IMG/VR virus record: IMGVR_UViG_3300031215_000009
Location: 1-64,000 of that record
DNA: 64,000 nucleotides
From: a virus
Strand: one strand, 5' to 3'
Shown: in pieces, positions 3,001 to 22,702 of the stretch
Layout of the letters: every line of letters begins with the position of its first letter
Position numbering within the stretch: the first letter of the stretch is position 1
Made by a program: the position numbers and the translations under genes
Notes under the pieces: model-generated
Databases searched by the model: none
Told to the model about the DNA's origin: nothing
The model's input: the letters and a program-made list of their open reading frames with translations, nothing else

Positions 3001-3754
3001 ATTATATAAACAATTGTATATAAACAAAATTAATGAACAAAATCCATTCACAGTTTTAGACTTGAATATTGATAGTGCATTAAGACCAGAGTTTTGGAAA
3101 TTGGGTGAAATTTCACTTGATAAACAAGATTCTTATATTTTCAGAAGTTGTTGGGATAGTAATTATCATAGAAGATATGTTAGTAAAATAAACTATGAAA
3201 GATTACCCGGATATATAGAACCAAAAGAAGTTAGTAGTTTCTTAGCATCTACTATTATGAACATACCAGAAGAATTAAAATTAGAAATGTACACATTTAC
3301 TGACCAAATTCTAAATAGTAATTTTGATATTACGATAACAAGAAATTCTGGTAATACAATTTCAGGGGTTTTGAATAATACTAAAAAATTAGTAGATTCA
3401 ATTAGACCTAATTTAGTTGCATTATTTGAAAAATATGTAAATTATAAATTTAACTTTAATCAATTAGATACTCTAAATGATGATATTGATAGATACATAA
3501 AAACTAATATTTTACCTAGATATTTTGCAAACAATGTCTATGCTTATATAAAATATAGTAGTAAAGTATCAAACGAACCTTTAATTGTAAATAATTTGAC
3601 AGAACAACAATTGTTAATTGATGGATATATCAAATTAGAAAACATTAAATTTATAAAAGAAAGTTTTAATGAATTTGATTATAATTTTATTTTTTCAAAA
3701 CCATCAGATAAATCAGTAACTTTAGCATTCTTTACAAATATAAGTATAGTTTAG
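2..3754 (+). CDS. Large virion structural protein (baseplate/tail-associated), 5'-truncated by the window edge
   Basis: The frame of the 233..3754 ORF is open back to position 2, so the TTG at 233 is not the true start. N/T/S/G-rich, lies in a structural cluster. Confidence 0.6.
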   Translation, partial: SKFKLDSEAFYDKKYTNLPQNKDISSKYDVDVLSDSNIALENSNGIKLFVDYENDYKLLSSDIKGENFLPYIYSTDGLFYDINNNVDWESNEIILKDTSINTQDLKGYTKESLGIIPATKTNQEGRSYFEFTIQGTMNSFELRIRDVDEDSIDFDINKVFIGDFGIPAGTFIGNKFSLAGLPDDISNAVVGAINDYSEKDEDFNVLAITKFNKVIVFTRGTNAYWNNYEYLMFSDDANFVNVINVPYNTFINTSVYNADRAANLPIELPSFKDYNTIVSGATSMFVTPSQHILRQNFIGGNDNEKNRIRISKEFVSYFNNNLFLKTQDWYSQIVSICAYLDEPIFQNGKIVNFDDIDSYMTINSDSNIWVSPGAYCELYDVETNKVGLMSMYPIKQFDVDQFRSDYGKDGDGYIQKLKDNYIAKGGTASGATASGIQNSLKSFEEHGFKRLGGKLDEATGSIKQIQNEYDRLLENELPQLSIKGRIIPYINKWVYDDDGLDVRENNYRLNSNSAFSYDNFVPSNVNVLPDFRFFTHEWYYLQEYPPYLTTKEKIDSFSYFENKIIIGATGLADVNNDYFTNYFTQYKVDDKSFPKKSKYSIISGGNENSYGETFFRGAKIKFKRRVENIQGLNFNIENIGVYPSSEFNDYKFSAVLTNDTNKAIGYNLIENKKFKTITMFIEANLDDYYLSRGPIPSGATMGELFLDRTLLYTIQDKYNSTGNFADISISGAISPFIELSNGSLIANFTKIPAAVDGGTNYVINGLSNSDTDSLPNFDNEIIPDENGTYNKIEIEISTTAKIVIDNIISVTKNTITAKTFLLITAGTTNEIQENYINLYPTPTQCLSKMPIYLSGGFNAFIGILQDLSFASIYDKVNNGSPDISYTTINEDGSITKDTFIIEFELYSTNAKSDYLKTKGILFNGVKNSNFKPIGQETTALENTYVSTMYRFNGKYNPKVKDVVLFKDVYGATGDTKFTPEIVEKLRFTNTQFFSTYPGFALYKQLYINKINEQNPFTVLDLNIDSALRPEFWKLGEISLDKQDSYIFRSCWDSNYHRRYVSKINYERLPGYIEPKEVSSFLASTIMNIPEELKLEMYTFTDQILNSNFDITITRNSGNTISGVLNNTKKLVDSIRPNLVALFEKYVNYKFNFNQLDTLNDDIDRYIKTNILPRYFANNVYAYIKYSSKVSNEPLIVNNLTEQQLLIDGYIKLENIKFIKESFNEFDYNFIFSKPSDKSVTLAFFTNISIV

Positions 3755-3810
3755 AGTTGATTAAATATTCTATCACTGAGAGTTTACTCTTAAAAAATTA
3801 AGTTGACTAA

Positions 3811-6800
3811 ATGGCAAATATAAGCATAAAAGAACTATTCGGTTCAGATACAATTACAGCATTAACTGAAAAAATTAATTATAATTTTGACCAATTAATA
3901 TTGGCTGGAGGAGGACCAGAAGGACCAATTGGACCAACAGGTAACAATGGAGTTGCAGGACCAGATGGACTTAGAGGTTCACAATGGTTTGGAGAATCAG
4001 GTGCCACTGGTACTATAAATCAACCAACAGATGGTACTTTTAGAGAAAATGATTTTAAATTAAACACTAATGGAGATGTTGTATATTATAACAATAATAT
4101 ATGGAATTCTGCTGGAATTAATCTTACAGGGCCTGCAGGACCAACAGGTTCATCAGGAGATGGTTCTATTAAAATTTTAGCTGGTAAGAATGAATTCCAT
4201 CCTACTTGGAATAATCAATTTGTACCAGATTATCAACAATTACAAACTTATTTAGCAACAAACTTTTTAAACGACAAAGATGATTATGACAATAATGCAG
4301 TTGGGTTTAATAATGCTGGACTTGATTTTATTGGATTAGGTAGAGGAAATAATTCATTAGTTCTTGGTAGATATGCTTCAATGTTTAGAAACACATCAAC
4401 AGGAGCAGGAGGTACCTTTAGTCCCGCTTCTGGTAATAAAACAATGGCAAATTTACCATCAAGTGAATCTGATGTACCTATGTTATTTATTAGTCAAAAT
4501 GACTATAAAGACCCAACAGAAGCTAAAAGTTTTAGTAATGGTATTGCTATTGGACTTACGAAATCACAAAAATCTGAAGATTATACTGATGGGAAATTTG
4601 GAGTAGATGCCCCAATGGACTATAATGATTTTGCAAATATTAGTATTGAAAATAGGTGGATGGACTTTAAGATTGAAGTCCCTGCATTATTTAGATTAAA
4701 AGGTAAAAATTCACTTAGTGAATTTAGATTAGGAACACGTACAACGAGAGCTGGTCAATCTAATGTTCAAGATATTTCAACTAAATTAGAATCTCAAATA
4801 TATACAGAAGTAAACTTAAATGATTCCTTTGTTGTTACTTTATCTAGTAATGAATCAAATCATGATTTAGGTGTAATTCACAGAGGTGAATATAATTATA
4901 CAGAAAATAAAAGAATATATAATCCTACTGAGGATTTAAGAAAGAATGTAAGTAAATCATTTGTAACACCTGGTGATACAACATTTACTGATGGACAAGC
5001 TAATGAAATTGTATTAGTTAACAGAACAATACTTGAAACTATAACAACTGGCGGCACTGCAGATAAAGGTAAAGTTAATAATAATTATATTGATTCAAAT
5101 AATTTTAATTCTAATGATAGTAAACTACCATTTAGATTAGGACAAACATTCGTAAAAGTACCAGTAGTTTCTAATGGTGGACCTTTACCAATCTCACAAA
5201 GAAATATAAGTTTACATTATCAAGGATTTGGTTATGACCAATCTATTATTTCTTATTCTGGTAATGATGATGTATTTGGTGGTGAAACTCCAATCAACAC
5301 ATCAGGTAAACCGATTGATGCTTTGTTACCTAATGATAATACTTTAGAAAATTATTTAGGTTATGATATTAAATTACCAATTACTGACCAAGAAGGTTCA
5401 AGGTCAATGTCAAGAATGGGTTTATATCCTGGTTTATTTAGAAAAGAAAAAGTAGGTGGTGCTTATGATAATGATGGTGACCCATTAGGTGAAAATAGAA
5501 AAGATGATTTCTTTGATATTGCACATAAAATGTTACCAACAGGTTCTATGGATTTATACGGAACAGTTAGATTAAGACAACAAGGTGAAACAGATAATGG
5601 AGCACAAGATGGATGGATAGCAATTAATAAGAAAGATGGAATTGTAACTTTCGAAGAACCAAATAAAGTTAATACAACTCCTACTTATGCTATTATGTCT
5701 TTTCCAGAATTAGCATCTAATAAATTTAGTTTCTATGTAAATTCTAGAAAAGATATAGGTGTAACTGGTAATGCTTTTGACAACGCTCTTAATTTTAGAT
5801 TAGGTAGTACTGGAATAGGTATGGCGTTCCCTGGTAAAGGTTCTGATGAACTTAAAGATTATTATATTTGTAACGGGGCAGTTTTAGCAGACGAAAGAGA
5901 TATTTTAATAACAGGACCATATAGTAAAATGAAAGGTATGAATGTTCATGCTAATGTTGATGTTGAAAATGGGTTTGTAAATACAGGAGATTCGATGCTT
6001 TATACTTCTAATGATAAATTCGAGGGGTTACTTGGACAAACACATAGTACATTTGAATTGGATTTAGGTGGTACAATAACATCTTATGGTATTAGTTATG
6101 GTAATGCTGATTTTAGAAGAACTTATCCTATATGGGGATATAGTGTTTTAGCACCAAAAACTGCAGAGTCAGGGTTTAGAATCGTACTACCTAATTACTT
6201 TGGTAGAGTTCAAAAAATGATATTTCCAGATTCTGATACGATTATTAGAGCAGTTGCTGGTAATACCAGTTCAAGAAGCGATTATACTTTAGGATTCCGA
6301 ACTACAGGACAACATAGGGGTGATGGATTTCAATACTATACACCAGATAAATATTATAATAGTAGATGGATGATGAAAGGAGCGTTTGAATCTTTAGGAT
6401 TTCCTTATTTAATGAAACAACATTTCCCAGATACATATCATGCACATGTTCAAAGAGACTTATATACAGAAGTTTCTGATAAGTCATTGTTGGGAGGAAC
6501 TGGGGATTGGACTTTAGAACAGGGACCTCCTACAATTGCAGGTGGTGGCTTTCCAATAACAAGGTATCCTAAATTAACTGGAGAGGGTACTTTCTCAGTA
6601 TCAAATGAACATACACACCGGGAACAACAAGTTAATTCATATTTTGAGGATAGTTTCATGACGGAGAATAATTATCAATATTTGACTTATTATAGAGATA
6701 GTAAACCACTTCATCCAAATCCAGCAGTAGATTTAACACCTAACTTTAAAGATAAACCATACACAGATAAAAATCCTTTTGGGTTTGGACAAAAATTTAT

Positions 6801-17646: not shown

Positions 17647-18120
17647 ATGAATGAAGAAAACGAAGAACTAAAACAAACTGAATTATCAACGTCTGATAAA
17701 TTAGATGTTGCGTTTGAAAAAGAACGCAAAGAAATATCTGCATATATTAAAGAAAATATTACAGATAAAATGCATAGTATTGATGAAATAGCAAATCTTC
17801 AAGTTCATTTGTTATCTCAACGACAACGATTGGTTGATAAGACTAATAGTTTAAGAGCCTCTATTAGAAAGAAAAACAAAAGTATGGCAAGGATTAGGAA
17901 ACAAAAATTTCGTTTCTATAAACTCGACTATGACGTTAAATTAAATGATTATGAAATAACAAGACATATTGATGCAGATGTAGAGGATGTAGTAAATATG
18001 GTTAAAATATTAGAAAATCAAATATTATACTACAAAGATACAACCGACACGTTAGACAAATGTACTTATATGATTAAGTACTTAATAGACGTTAAAAAGT
18101 TTATGTCAGGTAGTTTTTAA
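17647..18120 (+). CDS. uvsY: Recombination mediator UvsY-like protein
   Basis: Helical 157-aa protein with FY...Y...L...I..HIDAD, directly upstream of uvsW as in T4. Confidence 0.6.
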   Translation: MNEENEELKQTELSTSDKLDVAFEKERKEISAYIKENITDKMHSIDEIANLQVHLLSQRQRLVDKTNSLRASIRKKNKSMARIRKQKFRFYKLDYDVKLNDYEITRHIDADVEDVVNMVKILENQILYYKDTTDTLDKCTYMIKYLIDVKKFMSGSF

Positions 18121-18170
18121 CACTATTAAATACCTTATAAACACTATAAACACTATAAATACAAGTACTC

Positions 18171-19190
18171 ATGAAATTCGAGACAACTCACTCGGGTAAA
18201 ATATTAACTTTAGTTGACGCTTCTGTTTTAGAAAGAAAGCAATTAAGTTTATCTTTAACCAAAAAATTAGAATATTACAATTTCTTACCTCCAGCAGTTA
18301 AGAAAAGATGGAATGGAATTGTATCTTATTTCCACAAGGATAGATTTGTCCCTGTTGGTTTGTGGCAAGAATTAAAGTACATTGCAGAAACTTTCAAATT
18401 CCCATTAGAAATAACAGGACTTGGAGAAGCAATATTCTACAAAGATGTAACAAGAGATGAATTTCAAGATTGGGTAGATGATAAGTTTTTCGGTGCCGTT
18501 AATTCTAAAGGTGATGATTTTATTCCAAGAAAATATCAAGTTGATACTGCATACGCAATCTTAACTAATAAAATATCAGTTAGTGAATTAACAACAGCTG
18601 CAGGGAAATCTTTGATTATCTTTATTTGTATTGTTTATTTTCAAGAAACTGGTTTAGGAAAGAAATTCTTAATGATTGTACCATCTATTGATTTAGTAAT
18701 ACAAGCTTATGAAGATTTTAATGAATATAATAGTTTTTTATTAGAAGATAATAGATTTCCATTGAATATCAAACAAATTCATGGGGGAGAAAAGAAAGAC
18801 TTTATTGCATCACAAAATATACATGTTAGTACGTTTCAATCACTTGCTAAATTTCAAAATCAATACTTCACTGTATTTGATACTGTTATTGTTGATGAGT
18901 GTTTACACCCAGACAGTTTAATCAAGATGGGAGATAATACAACAAAGAAAATATCAGATGTAGTAATAGGAGATGAAGTTTGGACTACTAATGATATTAC
19001 AGGAGATTTGGAAATTAATAAAGTAGATTATATTTATAAAAATCTTTCAAGTCACGAACACTTATATGAATTGGAATTAGAGGATGGTTCGATATTAGAA
19101 CTAACAGGAAATCACAAAGTAAAACTTTCTGATAAATCTTATAAGAGAGTTGATGAATTGACAGGAAGTGAAGATATAATAACTTATTAA
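18171..19190 (+). CDS. uvsW: UvsW helicase segment 1 plus split intein N-half (Cys1 at 18900)
   Basis: PRKYQ, TAAGKS Walker A, IVPS, STFQS and VIVDE, followed by CLHPDS...LTGNHKV (intein blocks A and B). Confidence 0.92.
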   Translation: MKFETTHSGKILTLVDASVLERKQLSLSLTKKLEYYNFLPPAVKKRWNGIVSYFHKDRFVPVGLWQELKYIAETFKFPLEITGLGEAIFYKDVTRDEFQDWVDDKFFGAVNSKGDDFIPRKYQVDTAYAILTNKISVSELTTAAGKSLIIFICIVYFQETGLGKKFLMIVPSIDLVIQAYEDFNEYNSFLLEDNRFPLNIKQIHGGEKKDFIASQNIHVSTFQSLAKFQNQYFTVFDTVIVDECLHPDSLIKMGDNTTKKISDVVIGDEVWTTNDITGDLEINKVDYIYKNLSSHEHLYELELEDGSILELTGNHKVKLSDKSYKRVDELTGSEDIITY

Positions 19191-19197
19191 ATAACCT

Positions 19198-19473
19198 ATA
19201 AAAAGTTTACAAGAAATTATAAATGAACAAACAGAAGCTATTCATCAAGATACTGGGATAGAAGAAGGACAACGCAAAGATGTTGATGAAAAAGTAGAAA
19301 AGAAGAATCAACAGAATATAGATAAGTTCAAAGGTTTAGAAGTTTACTTAAAAGAAAATGACTACAAATTCCATTTAATAGATGAAGACTATTTTAGTGT
19401 TCAAGATTATTCTTCTTTGGAAAACCAACCAAATAAAAAATTACTTAAAACCAGACTAAAAGCATTTATATGA
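19198..19473 (+). pseudogene. ATG-less open frame between the intein halves, probable endonuclease remnant
   Basis: About 90 open codons. NIDKFKGLEVYLKENDYKFHLIDEDYF resembles the end of TnsA-like PD-(D/E)xK nucleases. The stop overlaps the IntC start (ATGA). Confidence 0.45.
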
Positions 19474-20273
19474 AAATAAAGAAAATAACAAAAAAGAAAT
19501 ATAAAGGTGATGTTTATAATCTTAGAATAGATAGTGAAGATGGAAACAATCATAATTACTTTGCTAACGATATTAATGTATCGAATTGTCATAGAACTAA
19601 GTCAAACACTATTAGAGAATGTATTAGTAAGTGTGTAAATGTAGAAAGACGTTTCGGATTAACAGGAACAACTCCAAAACAAGGTACTTTAGATAGTTTA
19701 ACACTACAAGCATATCTTGGTCCCAAGGTAATAGAAGTTAAAGCAAAAGAATTACAAGACAAAGGAGATATTGCAGAAGTTGATATAGCAATTGTTGAAT
19801 TGATTTACCCTGAAGAAATTCAAAAACGATTTGATGATATTAAAAAGAGTATGACAGGTGAAGACAAAGGAAAACTTCTTAAAATAGAACAAGATTTTAT
19901 TATTAAGTACATTCCTAGAGTTGAATTAATTTCAAAAGTCATTTCTAAAGTTCAAAAAAACCAATTAGTGTTGTTTCACAGACAAGCTTATGGTAAACAA
20001 CTTAAAAAGTACTTAGAAGAAAATACAGATAAAGAAATATATTTTATTTATGGTGAAACTAAGAAAGATGATAGAGCTGAGATTAAAAGATTGATGGAAC
20101 ATGATGTTATTGAAAAGGAAATAGATGCTTTTCGATTTGATTCAGAAGGTAATAGTTATGAAATATCACACAATGAGTATATTAGATTAGTAAATGGTAA
20201 ATCTATAAAGGTGTCAAATTTAAGTGAAAATGATGATATTGATTTGAAAAGTATATCTAAATTTAAAGTTTGA
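19470..20273 (+). CDS. uvsW: Split intein C-half (39 aa) plus UvsW segment 2, ending in a degenerate Hint-like tail
   Basis: VYNL...HNYFANDINVSN|CH restores DECH. GLTGT motif III, LVLF...G and IYGETKKDDR follow. Confidence 0.9.
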   Translation: MKIKKITKKKYKGDVYNLRIDSEDGNNHNYFANDINVSNCHRTKSNTIRECISKCVNVERRFGLTGTTPKQGTLDSLTLQAYLGPKVIEVKAKELQDKGDIAEVDIAIVELIYPEEIQKRFDDIKKSMTGEDKGKLLKIEQDFIIKYIPRVELISKVISKVQKNQLVLFHRQAYGKQLKKYLEENTDKEIYFIYGETKKDDRAEIKRLMEHDVIEKEIDAFRFDSEGNSYEISHNEYIRLVNGKSIKVSNLSENDDIDLKSISKFKV

Positions 20274-20318
20274 ATCACAACTGGAGTAAATATATAAAAT
20301 ATATAAAATAGATATATT

Positions 20319-21260
20319 ATGAAAAATGATTTACTTAAATGTTTCCAAGAAAAACATGGAACTCCAGATAATGTAAATAAATTAAATGAATATGTTGATT
20401 TCCTCCTGACATATAAGTTAAATGAAACTGAATATACTGAAAATCATCATATATTAGATAGGGCATCATTCCCAGAATTTGAAAAAGAAGAATGGAATAT
20501 TATAACATTAGACTATAAAGACCATATTAAAGTACATGAAATGTTGTTTGAAGATTATAATATTAGAAGATACCAAAGAACTCTTACTTTCAAAGGAGTG
20601 AAAAAAGATTATAAGTTACTTTCTAATGCAGCAAAGAAAGGATGGACTAAATTTAAAAACAACAAAGTAAAATATGATTTATTTTGTTTACGTAGAAGTG
20701 TAATAATGAAAACACTTTCGTCAGATGAACAATCAAGAAGGGGTAAATTATTTTGGGATAATTTATCAAGTGATGAATTAGAAAAATGGAAAATGAAATG
20801 TAATAAAGGTAGAACCAACGAATCAAAAATAAAACAAAAAGAATCAATTAATATTTATTATTCTAATCCTGATAATAGGGAAAAGAAATCTAAAGAAACA
20901 AAAGACTATTGGGATTCATTAAGTGAATCTAAAAGAAATGATTTTAGAAAAAACATGAAATCTATAAATTCTAATGAAGATAAAAGAAAAGATGCAAGTG
21001 TAAAAATAAAAAATAAATGGCAAGACCCTGTTTTTCAAGAAAAAATGTCAAATAGAAAAACTAAACCAAAAAACAAATATGAATTGATATTTGAAGATGG
21101 TAATAAAGAAATAATAATTGGGTTTTCTGAAATGATAGAAAAATATAACTTAAATGCTACACTAATTAGAAAATTCTTAAATACGAAAACCAAAGTAGAA
21201 TCTAAAAGTAAACGAGAACAAGCATTAAATACAATAGGATTAATAATAAACCAAATATAA
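20319..21260 (+). CDS. Free-standing HNH homing endonuclease (Mob-type) interrupting uvsW
   Basis: ENHHIL...NIITL...DHIKVHEML followed by basic helical repeats. Confidence 0.8.
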   Translation: MKNDLLKCFQEKHGTPDNVNKLNEYVDFLLTYKLNETEYTENHHILDRASFPEFEKEEWNIITLDYKDHIKVHEMLFEDYNIRRYQRTLTFKGVKKDYKLLSNAAKKGWTKFKNNKVKYDLFCLRRSVIMKTLSSDEQSRRGKLFWDNLSSDELEKWKMKCNKGRTNESKIKQKESINIYYSNPDNREKKSKETKDYWDSLSESKRNDFRKNMKSINSNEDKRKDASVKIKNKWQDPVFQEKMSNRKTKPKNKYELIFEDGNKEIIIGFSEMIEKYNLNATLIRKFLNTKTKVESKSKREQALNTIGLIINQI

Positions 21261-21261
21261 T

Positions 21262-21604
21262 ATGGCACAAATAACAAATTTAAAACACATAAAAAAGAAA
21301 GTAGAGGCTGCAAGAGTTCTTGTAGCCTCTTATTAGGTGCGGTACGTTATCGACAGGAATTAACATAAAAAATATCCATAATATTCACTTTACTGAATCG
21401 TTTAAATCAGATGTTATTGTAAGACAGTCTATTGGTAGAGGTTTAAGACAACATAAAGATAAAGATAAATTAAGAGTTTATGATTTTGTAGATTGTCTTA
21501 ATACTGGAAAAGATAACATGTTAATGAATCATTCAAGAGTTAGACGAACAATCTACAAAGAACAACAATTTGATTATATTATCAAGAAAGTACATTTAAT
21601 TTAA
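21262..21604 (+). CDS. uvsW: UvsW C-terminal part, interrupted by 7 nt (TAGGTGC, 21334-21340); absent from the ORF track
   Basis: 21262-21333 reads MAQITNLKHIKKEVEAARVLVASY. 21341-21604 in the +1 frame reads GTLSTGINIKNIHNIHF...RQSIGRGLR...VYDFVD..., i.e. helicase motifs V and VI. Confidence 0.85.
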
Positions 21605-21694
21605 TAATGGTCTCATAGAGTTAAATACTTTATGAGACCTTTTATTTTTTATAAAGTTTTTAATTACATTAAATAATTAAAAGAAATATAGTAA

Positions 21695-22042
21695 ATGAAG
21701 AGTTTAAATGAATTTTTAAAGGAAGAGGTATCTGATAAGTTAGAAGAAAGAACTGTTCAAGTTAAAAGAAAATATGGTATTCATGATTCTATCAAAGTTG
21801 GAGCAATTGCACCAGTTAGATTAAAAATATTAGGATTTATTGCAGAAAAAGGTCATTGTACTAAAGATGAATTAAAAGAATTTATAAATTCTAAAAATGA
21901 AGATTCAGGGACAAGAACTAATATGTCTTGGTTAAGAAAAAATGCAAAATATATTACAGAATTTGAAAAAGATGGTTGTAGTTGTTGTAAACTTTCTAAA
22001 CTTGGTAAAAGAGTTATAAACAAAACAAATATCAACGATTAA
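21695..22042 (+). CDS. Small basic protein, winged-helix-like, with a capsid-targeting-like N-terminus
   Basis: Starts MKSLNEFLKEE; contains RLKILGFI...TKDEL...CKLSKLGKR. Confidence 0.5.
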   Translation: MKSLNEFLKEEVSDKLEERTVQVKRKYGIHDSIKVGAIAPVRLKILGFIAEKGHCTKDELKEFINSKNEDSGTRTNMSWLRKNAKYITEFEKDGCSCCKLSKLGKRVINKTNIND

Positions 22043-22108: not shown

Positions 22109-22702
22109 ATGAAAAATTTAACAGGATTTATAAACGAGGCTCAAAAGTCTAAAAAACAAAAAGAATATCAAGATTTCTTTGATAAGAAATTAGAAAAATA
22201 TAATGTAAAATCACCTGCAGAACTTGATGATGCTGAAAAGAAAAAATTCTTTAATGAAATAGATAAAGAATGGACAGGTGAAGCTACAAACGAAAAGAAA
22301 GTAGAAGAAGATTTCGATTCTGAAGATGATGAAGATTCTGAAGACTTGAAAGATAAGAAAGATAAAGACGATAAGAAAGACAAAAAAGAAGAAGATGAGG
22401 ATGATGAAGAAGATGAGGATGATGAAGAAGATGAAGATGATGAAGAGGATGATGAAGAAGATGAAGATGAAGAAGAAGATGAGGAAAAAGTTGATGAAAG
22501 TTTAATAACAGAAAAAGAATCTAAATTTGCTAAAAAATTCAAAGGGTTAGTAGATAGTAAAGATATTGCAGGAATTAGAAACGGTGTAAAAAACGTTTTC
22601 GCTGATTTAGCAGAAGAAGGAGCAGCTAATGAAGATATTAGAGAATTTATTCAAATGTATGTTGATATTTCATTGGATCAAATCGAAGCATCTGTTGGAT
22701 AA
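22109..22702 (+). CDS. Highly acidic internal head/prohead core-type protein
   Basis: Starts MKNLTGFINE; long D/E tract encoded by GAA/GAT/GAG repeats (about 22388-22485). Confidence 0.55.
   Translation: MKNLTGFINEAQKSKKQKEYQDFFDKKLEKYNVKSPAELDDAEKKKFFNEIDKEWTGEATNEKKVEEDFDSEDDEDSEDLKDKKDKDDKKDKKEEDEDDEEDEDDEEDEDDEEDDEEDEDEEEDEEKVDESLITEKESKFAKKFKGLVDSKDIAGIRNGVKNVFADLAEEGAANEDIREFIQMYVDISLDQIEASVG

Follow-up and report, generated by a model that had tools for sequence, protein, structure and literature searches.

The window analyzed here, the first 64,000 nucleotides (nt) of IMG/VR virus record IMGVR_UViG_3300031215_000009, carries a gene for a UvsW-like helicase that is divided into four segments on the + strand (18171-21604, from the reading of open reading frames [ORFs]). 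Based on comparisons with related loci and on analogy with known phage genes, we consider it fairly probable (about 60%) that this gene was invaded three times by homing elements and that an active enzyme is rebuilt after transcription by splicing, chain assembly, and a ribosomal hop. The best reading of the last interruption, suggested by its sequence, is a short programmed translational bypass that forms a miniature, nonhomologous analogue of the T4 mobA/gene 60 element. The full record is 81 kb long and derives from salt-lake metagenomes (∼28% G+C; completeness, 26% by CheckV), and a DNA search of the region against phages returned weak matches only.

Close relatives supplied the reference state of the gene. 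In IMG/VR scans, loci L009 to L016 encode it in a single ORF (512 amino acids [aa] in seven of them, 499 aa in L016) with 78 to 84% identity to each window piece (from 75% in the second helicase piece), and the more distant relatives L003 to L008 and L017 are likewise uninterrupted. In the uninterrupted relatives, ...VIVDECH... and ...LMESGTNKVLVASYGTLSTG... (a close variant in L011, L015, and L016) lie in one frame, which fixes three insertion points: between DE and CH of motif II (junction 1), between LMEHD and VLVASY (junction 2), and between the Tyr and Gly codons of motif V (junction 3). Relative L012 matched T4 UvsW (PDB 2OCA) end to end (residues 32 to 511; E value, 1.8e-47), and by this sequence comparison the host gene is a UvsW-like helicase of superfamily 2 (SF2).

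The initial annotation had described one uvsW gene in pieces at 18171-19190, 19470-20273, 21262-21333, and 21341-21604, with SF2 motifs that are intact once the pieces are concatenated. All four pieces are present at these coordinates, and motifs I, II, III, V, and VI were found across them (AAGKS, DE/CH, LTGTTP, VASY/GTLSTG, and QSIGRGLR). It had also named elevated ratios of nonsynonymous to synonymous substitution (dN/dS), frequent loss of the last segments, or a second intact uvsW as grounds for doubt. The ratios proved low (0.11 to 0.16 for the first helicase piece, 0.05 to 0.13 for the second, and 0.07 to 0.14 for segment 4), and segment 4 was whole wherever it could be judged. No second uvsW was found in the 81-kb record, which is 26% complete, so a copy may lie elsewhere.

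The stop-led gap at junction 3

Segment 3 is a 24-codon leader ORF, or N-terminal extension (21262-21333; MAQITNLKHIKKKVEAARVLVASY), that ends on the proposed take-off Tyr codon TAT (21331-21333) and is followed by TAG. The 87-aa segment 4 (21341-21604, including TAA) begins 7 nt later with the rest of motif V (GTLSTGINIKN...), contains motif VI, and is 78 to 84% identical to L009 to L016. We counted this arrangement in the 30 loci in which the start of segment 4 was visible, the window included; L121, which shares its contig with L089, was not counted, and L090 is a second copy of that contig too. At 28 of the 30 loci, the Tyr codon is directly followed by a stop codon, 1 to 6 more bases, and then GGN ACN. 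The take-off codon is TAT in 21 loci and TAC in 7, the stop is TGA (17 loci), TAG (7), or TAA (4), and the total gap length is 7 nt in 14 loci, 4 nt in 6, 8 nt in 3, 5 nt in 2, 6 nt in 2, and 9 nt in 1. All 13 IMG/VR loci with a visible junction had the same layout; L156, L158, L159, and L162 are IMG/VR contigs outside the metagenome set, of which L158 and L162 are identical here, so that three are distinct.

Gap lengths span all three frame classes, and in four loci (L101, L103, L109, and L124) the gap closes with another stop triplet in the only onward frame, so a single mechanism for the family must skip the whole gap. The last triplet (GAC in 8 loci, TAT in 5, AAC in 5, TAA in 3, TAC in 2, TGC in 2, and TAG, AAT, and GTC in 1 each) could pair with the Tyr anticodon at two or more positions in 27 of 28 loci. 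The initial annotation had held that junction 3 needs translational recoding. This claim now has strong comparative support from the 28 loci and from the hairpin covariation described below, and it is refined to a probable hop over the whole gap, not a simple +1 shift.

In the window, the junction reads TAT, TAGGTGC, GGT, where the 7-nt gap (21334-21340) consists of the stop TAG and GTGC, and its last triplet, UGC in the mRNA, is the putative landing site. The 7-nt insertion occurred with 0 differences in contigs of two runs (X1 record 5, 20952-21461; X3 record 15, 21301-21451), one of which may be the window's own source sample, and on this evidence an assembly or sequencing error was rejected. 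An alternative genetic code was also rejected: the 62 long open frames end in TAA (44), TGA (11), or TAG (7), and TAG is therefore an ordinary stop in this phage. A Tyr-to-Tyr hop onto TAC at 21343-21345 was rejected as well, as it would enter the wrong frame and then meet TAA.

A predicted RNA hairpin of 12 bp, with one G-U pair and a 4-nt loop, precedes the gap in the window (21303-21330; minimum free energy [MFE], -19.9 kcal/mol) and ends 1 nt before the Tyr codon. In all 28 gap loci, the 36 nt that end at the Tyr triplet form a hairpin of 10 to 14 bp (MFE, -12.8 to -26.7 kcal/mol), compared with a mean MFE of -4.5 (range, 0 to -9.8) and no hairpin for the same 36 nt in 80 uninterrupted genes. 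These control genes represent 80 of 86 loci (L003 to L088), six having been dropped with segment 4 less than 400 nt from the locus start or outside the locus. Covariation across 24 distinct sequences supported the structure, with 88.5% of cells paired versus 37 to 60% in slid controls, 23 cells changed on both sides, and none of 500 shuffles as high. Pair 18-33, at synonymous sites, occurs as AU (8), GC (6), GU (4), and UA (4). The divergent clades (L089, L117, L119, and L124) form the hairpin in a shifted register and over codons for different amino acids.

Two cassette loci without the stop-led gap, L118 and L125, also lack the hairpin and serve as natural controls. In L118 (3998-5329), the leader runs in frame into segment 4 (IASF-GTLSTG) with Tyr replaced by Phe, the hairpin is gone (MFE, -3.2), and the HNH frame has no start codon; this locus may be a natural revertant that lost the gap after decay of the nuclease gene. 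At L125 (5100-5230), we observed one extra base in GGA ACA TTT C TCC, where tRNA-Phe could slip from UUU to UUC in the classic +1 pattern (MFE of the hairpin region, -1.7). L125 may represent a different recoding solution or a sequencing error.

Several observations suggest that segment 4 is translated and selected. It is complete in 29 of the 30 loci (28 with the stop-led gap), the other, L104, being cut by a contig end, and its frame runs uninterrupted to the natural end wherever this could be judged, IMG/VR loci included. Most close pairs of cassette loci (dS below 1.2) gave a segment 4 dN/dS of ∼0.0 to 0.4, with values up to ∼0.6 in distant pairs. Against uninterrupted relatives, the window value (given above) was not above those of other segments, with dS saturated. 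Codons after the gap vary synonymously, with Ser, for example, written as TCN or AGC. The window frame of segment 4 has no ATG, GTG, or TTG upstream and is closed by TAG at 21323-21325, and 15 of 28 gap loci, including the window, have no such in-frame start before GGN. Downstream, a terminator-like hairpin and T-run (21609-21649; 13 pairs, then TTTTATTTTT) is the sole such site in 18000-21800 (shuffle mean, 0.3) and, judged by its sequence, closes the predicted transcription unit of the helicase pieces.

Loci L107 and L108 provide a view of the exchanged block. They are identical over 3664-5001 bar one base, from the end of the helicase N-terminal part through the tail, HNH gene, leader, and hairpin, and they diverge again from the fifth gap base onward (segment 4 dS, 0.45), which places the 3' end of the exchanged block at the gap.

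In the mechanism that we propose, ribosomes would translate the 24-codon leader and reach Tyr UAU in the P site with stop UAG in the A site. At take-off, the 3' arm of the hairpin would still be inside the ribosome, and its refolding at the mRNA exit would favor forward movement; Wills et al. (2024) discuss, for gene 60, the idea that pairing of the exiting mRNA drives forward bypassing. The peptidyl-tRNA-Tyr would unpair, the ribosome would move 7 nt and re-pair on the Tyr-like UGC, and decoding would resume at GGU. The product would be ...VLVASY-GTLSTG..., the same as in uninterrupted genes. By analogy with the T4 MobA element, the gap probably shields the DNA of the element from its own endonuclease.

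The split intein and the HNH cassette

ORF1 (18171-19190) encodes 243 aa of helicase, from motif I (AAGKS) to the DE of motif II in VIVDE (extein 1, 18171-18899; 78 to 80% identity to L009 to L016; matches to Pfam ResIII and DEAD), followed by the 96-aa N-terminal half (IntN) of a split intein (18900-19190; CLHPDSL...TGNHKV..., then TAA). ORF2 (19470-20273) opens with the 39-aa C-terminal half (IntC; 19470-19586) and resumes the helicase with CHRTKSN..., so that the restored motif reads DECH. The intein halves thus lie on separate ORFs, the first closed by TAA at 19188-19190 and the second opened by ATG at 19470, and L009 to L017 read ...VDECH... at this site without an insert. IntN begins with Cys1 and holds the block B motif TGNH, both invariant in four of four aligned IntN halves, and it scored 30.6 bits against Pfam Hint (cutoff, 29.7). 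IntC ends in NDINVSN followed by the extein Cys+1; VSN is invariant in four of four, and its penultimate residue is Ser, not His.

The same site holds a split intein in L092, L117, L118, and L158/L162, and also in cultured Salmonella/Gelderlandvirus phages, where the pieces are annotated as uvsW_1, hypothetical protein, and uvsW_2. Identity of the window halves to those of L092, L117, and L118 is 46 to 50% for IntN and 60 to 72% for IntC, and the halves correspond to PHROG families 16259 and 9690. The best reading of junction 1, by analogy with other inteins, is a canonical split intein at DE/CH that probably trans-splices: IntN and IntC, from ORF1 and ORF2, would associate and join VIVDE to CH..., restoring motif II. 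The initial annotation had identified this intein and the lack of a penultimate His, and both points stood.

What could be added concerns the spacer. In L092, L117, and L118, an intact ORF of 270 to 285 aa with a match to Pfam Tn7_TnsA-like_N lies between the intein halves. The window has instead a 279-nt open frame of 92 codons without ATG, GTG, or TTG (19195-19473), whose TGA overlaps the IntC ATG. The last 50 aa of this frame are 42% identical to the C terminus of the 269-aa ORF of L117 (pairwise E value, 7e-6; the L092 match is weaker), and this similarity identifies the spacer as what is left of a free-standing TnsA/Vsr-like homing endonuclease gene. An endonuclease gene formerly between the intein halves would thus have decayed to the 92-codon remnant.

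Junction 2 holds a cassette of ∼1.2 kb. Extein 2 (19587-20102; ∼172 aa, from motif III LTGTTP to about RLMEHD) is 75 to 82% identical to L009 to L016 over residues 1 to 171 and is followed by a cassette-encoded C-terminal extension, or tail (20103-20273; ∼56 aa, then TGA). Next come a free-standing Mob-like HNH homing endonuclease gene (20319-21260; 313 aa; PHROG 12434 "HNH endonuclease," E value 3e-15) and the leader. The HNH protein is 28 to 31% identical to Mob-like and MobD-like homing endonucleases of T4-like phages and keeps the invariant columns H43, H44, N60, H69, and H73. A profile of its family found 64 metagenome loci, in 38 of which the HNH gene interrupts a uvsW-like gene at the position seen in the window.

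At cassette loci, the upstream ORF is always extended by a conserved tail of ∼50 aa (consensus ...VEYTILNFGDYEIEVKSDF.ILLSNG..K.AKDIT..DDIDD.FI), which is kept in 31 loci and missing from uninterrupted relatives. The downstream part always opens with a leader of 18 to 26 codons (23 distinct loci; consensus MA.IIDKRKIIREE.ATKVLVASY), whose ATG adjoins or overlaps the HNH stop; in the window, it lies 1 nt after that stop. Across the family, the last 8 to 9 leader codons replace helicase residues lost at insertion, and the window leader comprises 16 cassette-specific and 8 replacement codons (RVLVASY and the preceding A). The tail profile aligned with the C-terminal 37 residues of IntN halves (hhalign probability, 88%; E value, 3e-6), such that the acidic tail looks like the end of an IntN half.

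We suggest that the cassette (tail, HNH gene, leader, hairpin, and gap) inserted between LMEHD and VLVASY and that the two resulting polypeptides would assemble noncovalently, which is the best reading by analogy with T4 gp39/gp60 and Aeh1 NrdA. Because the split interrupts the second RecA-like domain, an active enzyme would require assembly, which the conserved acidic tail and basic leader probably help. The initial annotation had presumed noncovalent association across an HNH gene; the HNH gene was borne out, and the association is the part that the conserved tail and leader fit by analogy.

The window belongs to a divergent cassette clade. Its HNH protein is 35 to 49% identical to those at the other fetched loci, and its closest HNH relatives are P0002 and P0003 (59% identity). 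All three interruptions occur in one gene in the window and in L092, L117, and L158/L162, and the cassette and split intein share a gene in a minority of loci (at least four distinct). No cassette was found among the cultured phages of the collection searched, where tblastn with the main-clade tail gave no match and HNH matches reached at most 72% coverage and 25 to 31% identity. An IMG/VR scan with the tail alignment confirmed nothing, probably because the confirmation query was the divergent tail of the window. None of 10 distant HNH relatives examined among L131 to L154 (L131, L133, L136, L140, L142, L144, L146, L149, L151, and L152) had the uvsW arrangement; their HNH genes are free-standing or lie in other genes.

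We also noted variation around related HNH genes. L096 (1290-1918) and L098 (2437-2960) have an extra ∼520 to 630 nt between the stop of the helicase N-terminal part and the HNH start, which is not in their close relative L105. The distant HNH relative in L146 (2200-6018; same contig as L192) lies inside an apparent DNA polymerase gene with an intein-like stretch after YGDTDS further downstream, perhaps a second enzyme gene interrupted more than once. P0006, a 196-aa HNH relative, starts MLSTGLNIQK..., like helicase motif V read into the HNH ORF, which hints at a different HNH position relative to motif V. Just downstream of the helicase unit, the window encodes a 197-aa ORF (22109-22702) with a long Asp/Glu run (∼80 acidic residues).

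Alternative explanations

Several points weigh against the rebuilding of this gene as proposed. The window landing triplet UGC pairs with the Tyr anticodon only via a middle G-U pair, an exact Tyr landing codon is present in just 7 of 28 loci, and in the 4-nt gaps the stop codon itself dictates two of the three landing bases. The loci are related to one another and cannot be counted as independent events, and selection on segment 4 may partly predate each insertion, with dS saturated for the window. Trans-splicing and two-chain assembly rest on analogy, and hhalign detected no similarity of the leader to IntC. Furthermore, 20 of the 28 gaps measure 4 or 7 nt, the +1 frame class, and a +1 shift with one or two extra residues would suit most of them. 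Conventional recoding that reads part of the gap would produce ...VASY-RC-GTLSTG... in the window by a +1 shift at UAU-U and would act elsewhere by +1, +2, or stop readthrough depending on gap length. A stop in the A site is a classic stimulator of +1 frameshifting, as in prfB, and the window +1 frame is open through AGG TGC GGT. In prfB-type frameshifting, the P-site codon re-pairs in the +1 frame and a Shine-Dalgarno (SD) sequence lies ∼3 nt upstream. We rejected this type for the window, where UAU to AUU allows no P-site re-pairing and the nearest GAGG is 24 nt upstream, in the 5' arm of the hairpin. Gaps of 5, 6, 8, and 9 nt in 8 of 28 loci and the onward-frame stops in four loci also argue against partial reading. 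The inserted residues would vary widely (E-Y, E-D, K-D, R-C, D, and N) within conserved motif V, and L107 and L108 differ only by Y or D at the inserted position. Overall, we regard partial reading of the gap as unlikely.

Automated gene calling sees a stop and no start at segment 4, and a second uvsW may lie in the missing part of the record. The gene could then be dead downstream of the HNH cassette, with segments 3 and 4 as untranslated remains and the phage using an N-terminal fragment or no UvsW. This is quite improbable given the open frame of segment 4, dN/dS of ∼0.1, the conservation of the hairpin and Tyr-stop arrangement with compensatory changes, and the position of the terminator after segment 4, not segment 3. 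Separate initiation of segment 4, by reinitiation after the leader stop or from a noncanonical or TTG codon, would yield a helicase of three chains. It is possible for 13 of the 28 loci, not including the window, in which an in-frame TTG lies 5 to 6 codons upstream of GGN, and sliding and reinitiation by 70S ribosomes is described (PMC11194080). We give it very little chance, as the other 15 loci lack a canonical or TTG start, no codon is open upstream in four loci, the TTG arises incidentally from codons GTT GCC within the hairpin 3' arm, and the leader is fused in frame to segment 4 in L118.

Covalent joining of the halves at junction 2, by a self-splicing intron around the HNH gene or a second working split intein, appears extremely improbable, even though group I introns are a frequent seat of homing endonuclease genes and the tail is similar to the final part of an IntN half. 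The VLVASY codons lie past the HNH gene and follow an ATG of their own. A group I or II intron was rejected on finding 0 Rfam matches in 18000-21800 at E values up to 1. A second intein was likewise rejected: the tail and leader-specific part total ∼70 aa and are too short, the nucleophiles are absent (no Cys or Ser as first residue and no terminal Asn), and the leader is unlike IntC.

Significance and comparison with known systems

Reported cases of programmed translational bypass comprise T4 gene 60 with its homologues, yeast mitochondria, and a Streptomyces phage candidate, and the gene 60 cassette is called unique in the text of Manning and Atkins (bioRxiv 10.1101/2022.08.31.505936). If the proposed hop is real, the uvsW cassette would be a second, independently evolved homing endonuclease cassette that depends on ribosome hopping, with signals far simpler than those of gene 60: a 5' hairpin, a Tyr codon, a stop, and a few bases. 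It would allow a direct test of mRNA pairing behind the ribosome as a driver of forward movement, and the natural 4- to 9-nt gap variants would be a ready-made mutational series, simple and testable at the bench, for a rare decoding event. Among the phage uvsW genes labeled as truncated by automatic pipelines, dozens may be intact. The traits specific to the window are the three interruptions in one gene, the decayed intein endonuclease gene, the divergent cassette clade, and the gap form TAGGTGC; its gene has taken several layers of selfish-element damage, yet purifying selection persists.

A broader and more tentative idea, to which we give slightly less than an even chance, is that the hairpin, UAY, stop, and a gap of up to 9 nt make up a minimal portable bypass module. 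Refolding of the hairpin would push peptidyl-tRNA-Tyr over the stop to a near-cognate triplet. In the window, one enzyme would then need three repairs, namely, trans-splicing, a clasp that derives from a split-intein interface, and a ribosome hop, and each would be the trace left by a different homing element.

At junction 1, the layout resembles the fractured genes of Dassa et al. (2009; PMC2677866), in which two neighboring ORFs each encode one intein half, IntN or IntC, and the break falls at a catalytic motif of a phage DNA enzyme. L092, L117, and L118, with the intact TnsA/Vsr-like ORF between the halves, share that layout, whereas the endonuclease gene of the window is reduced to a startless C-terminal remnant. 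UvsW is outside the eight enzyme types listed there. The uvsW_1, ORF, and uvsW_2 order of Salmonella phage CF-SP2 and S16-like phages is also like that of the window. For junction 2, a parallel is Aeh1 nrdA, which a Mob endonuclease gene, MobE, likewise splits and in which the two-chain enzyme depends on the added tail and leader to be active, as recounted by Manning and Atkins (10.1101/2022.08.31.505936). Unlike for the uvsW cassette, that account describes no coding gap or recoding for nrdA.

Our literature searches brought up no report of translational bypass, or of a coding gap, for uvsW or another helicase gene. The main text of Manning and Atkins contains neither "helicase" nor "UvsW"; the supplementary metagenomic cassette tables of that paper, which lie outside the comparison, might bear on this. 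The terminase gene of Streptomyces phage Hau3 (RNA Biol 2023; PMC10732093) has two 10-nt gaps proposed to be bypassed, and its junction peptide was seen by mass spectrometry in Escherichia coli. Like the uvsW gap, these are short frame-breaking inserts in an essential phage gene that are absent from relatives, with a slow A-site codon and 5' stem-loop signals proposed. In contrast, the Hau3 gap starts with the rare sense codon UUA, is interpreted as a regulatory sensor, and involves no homing endonuclease in that report, where such inserts occurred in only 3 of 100 terminase genes analyzed. The proposed hop also resembles the synthetic E. coli "stop-hops" covered in the review by Atkins et al. 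(2016; PMC5009743), in which peptidyl-tRNA hops over a stop to a matched codon a few nucleotides on. Unlike the uvsW case, those are low-level events in constructs, and that review, as of 2016, knew of no natural in-frame stop-hop.

The closest counterpart is the T4 MobA element, which consists of gene 39, mobA, and gene 60 with a 50-nt translational bypass, as described by Manning and Atkins (10.1101/2022.08.31.505936). In both systems, a Mob-family HNH gene splits an essential DNA metabolism gene, a conserved C-terminal tail is added to the upstream ORF, and the leader, which combines a unique part with a replacement of deleted host sequence, adjoins or overlaps the HNH ORF. In both, a stop-led coding gap directly follows the replacement stretch (for uvsW, in 28 of 30 loci, as TAT then TAG in the window), and the mobile block ends at the gap (for uvsW, in L107 and L108). 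Loss of the gap alongside an apparently defective nuclease gene, seen in one uvsW cassette locus (L118), is a further likeness. The differences are that the host gene is uvsW here and that of the topoisomerase (II large subunit) there, the gap is 4 to 9 nt versus 50 nt (20 nt in the shortest clade), the take-off codon is Tyr rather than Gly, and the leader has 18 to 26 rather than 44 to 45 codons. Unlike in the MobA element, the take-off codon of the uvsW cassette is not enclosed in a stem-loop, an internal SD sequence would not fit, and the strong hairpin lies wholly 5' of that codon. The bypass regions were likened by their layout; sequence homology was not seen, and no test of it was made. 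Given the differences in host gene, gap length, take-off codon, and structure position, the uvsW element would work like the MobA element and is not a member of its family.

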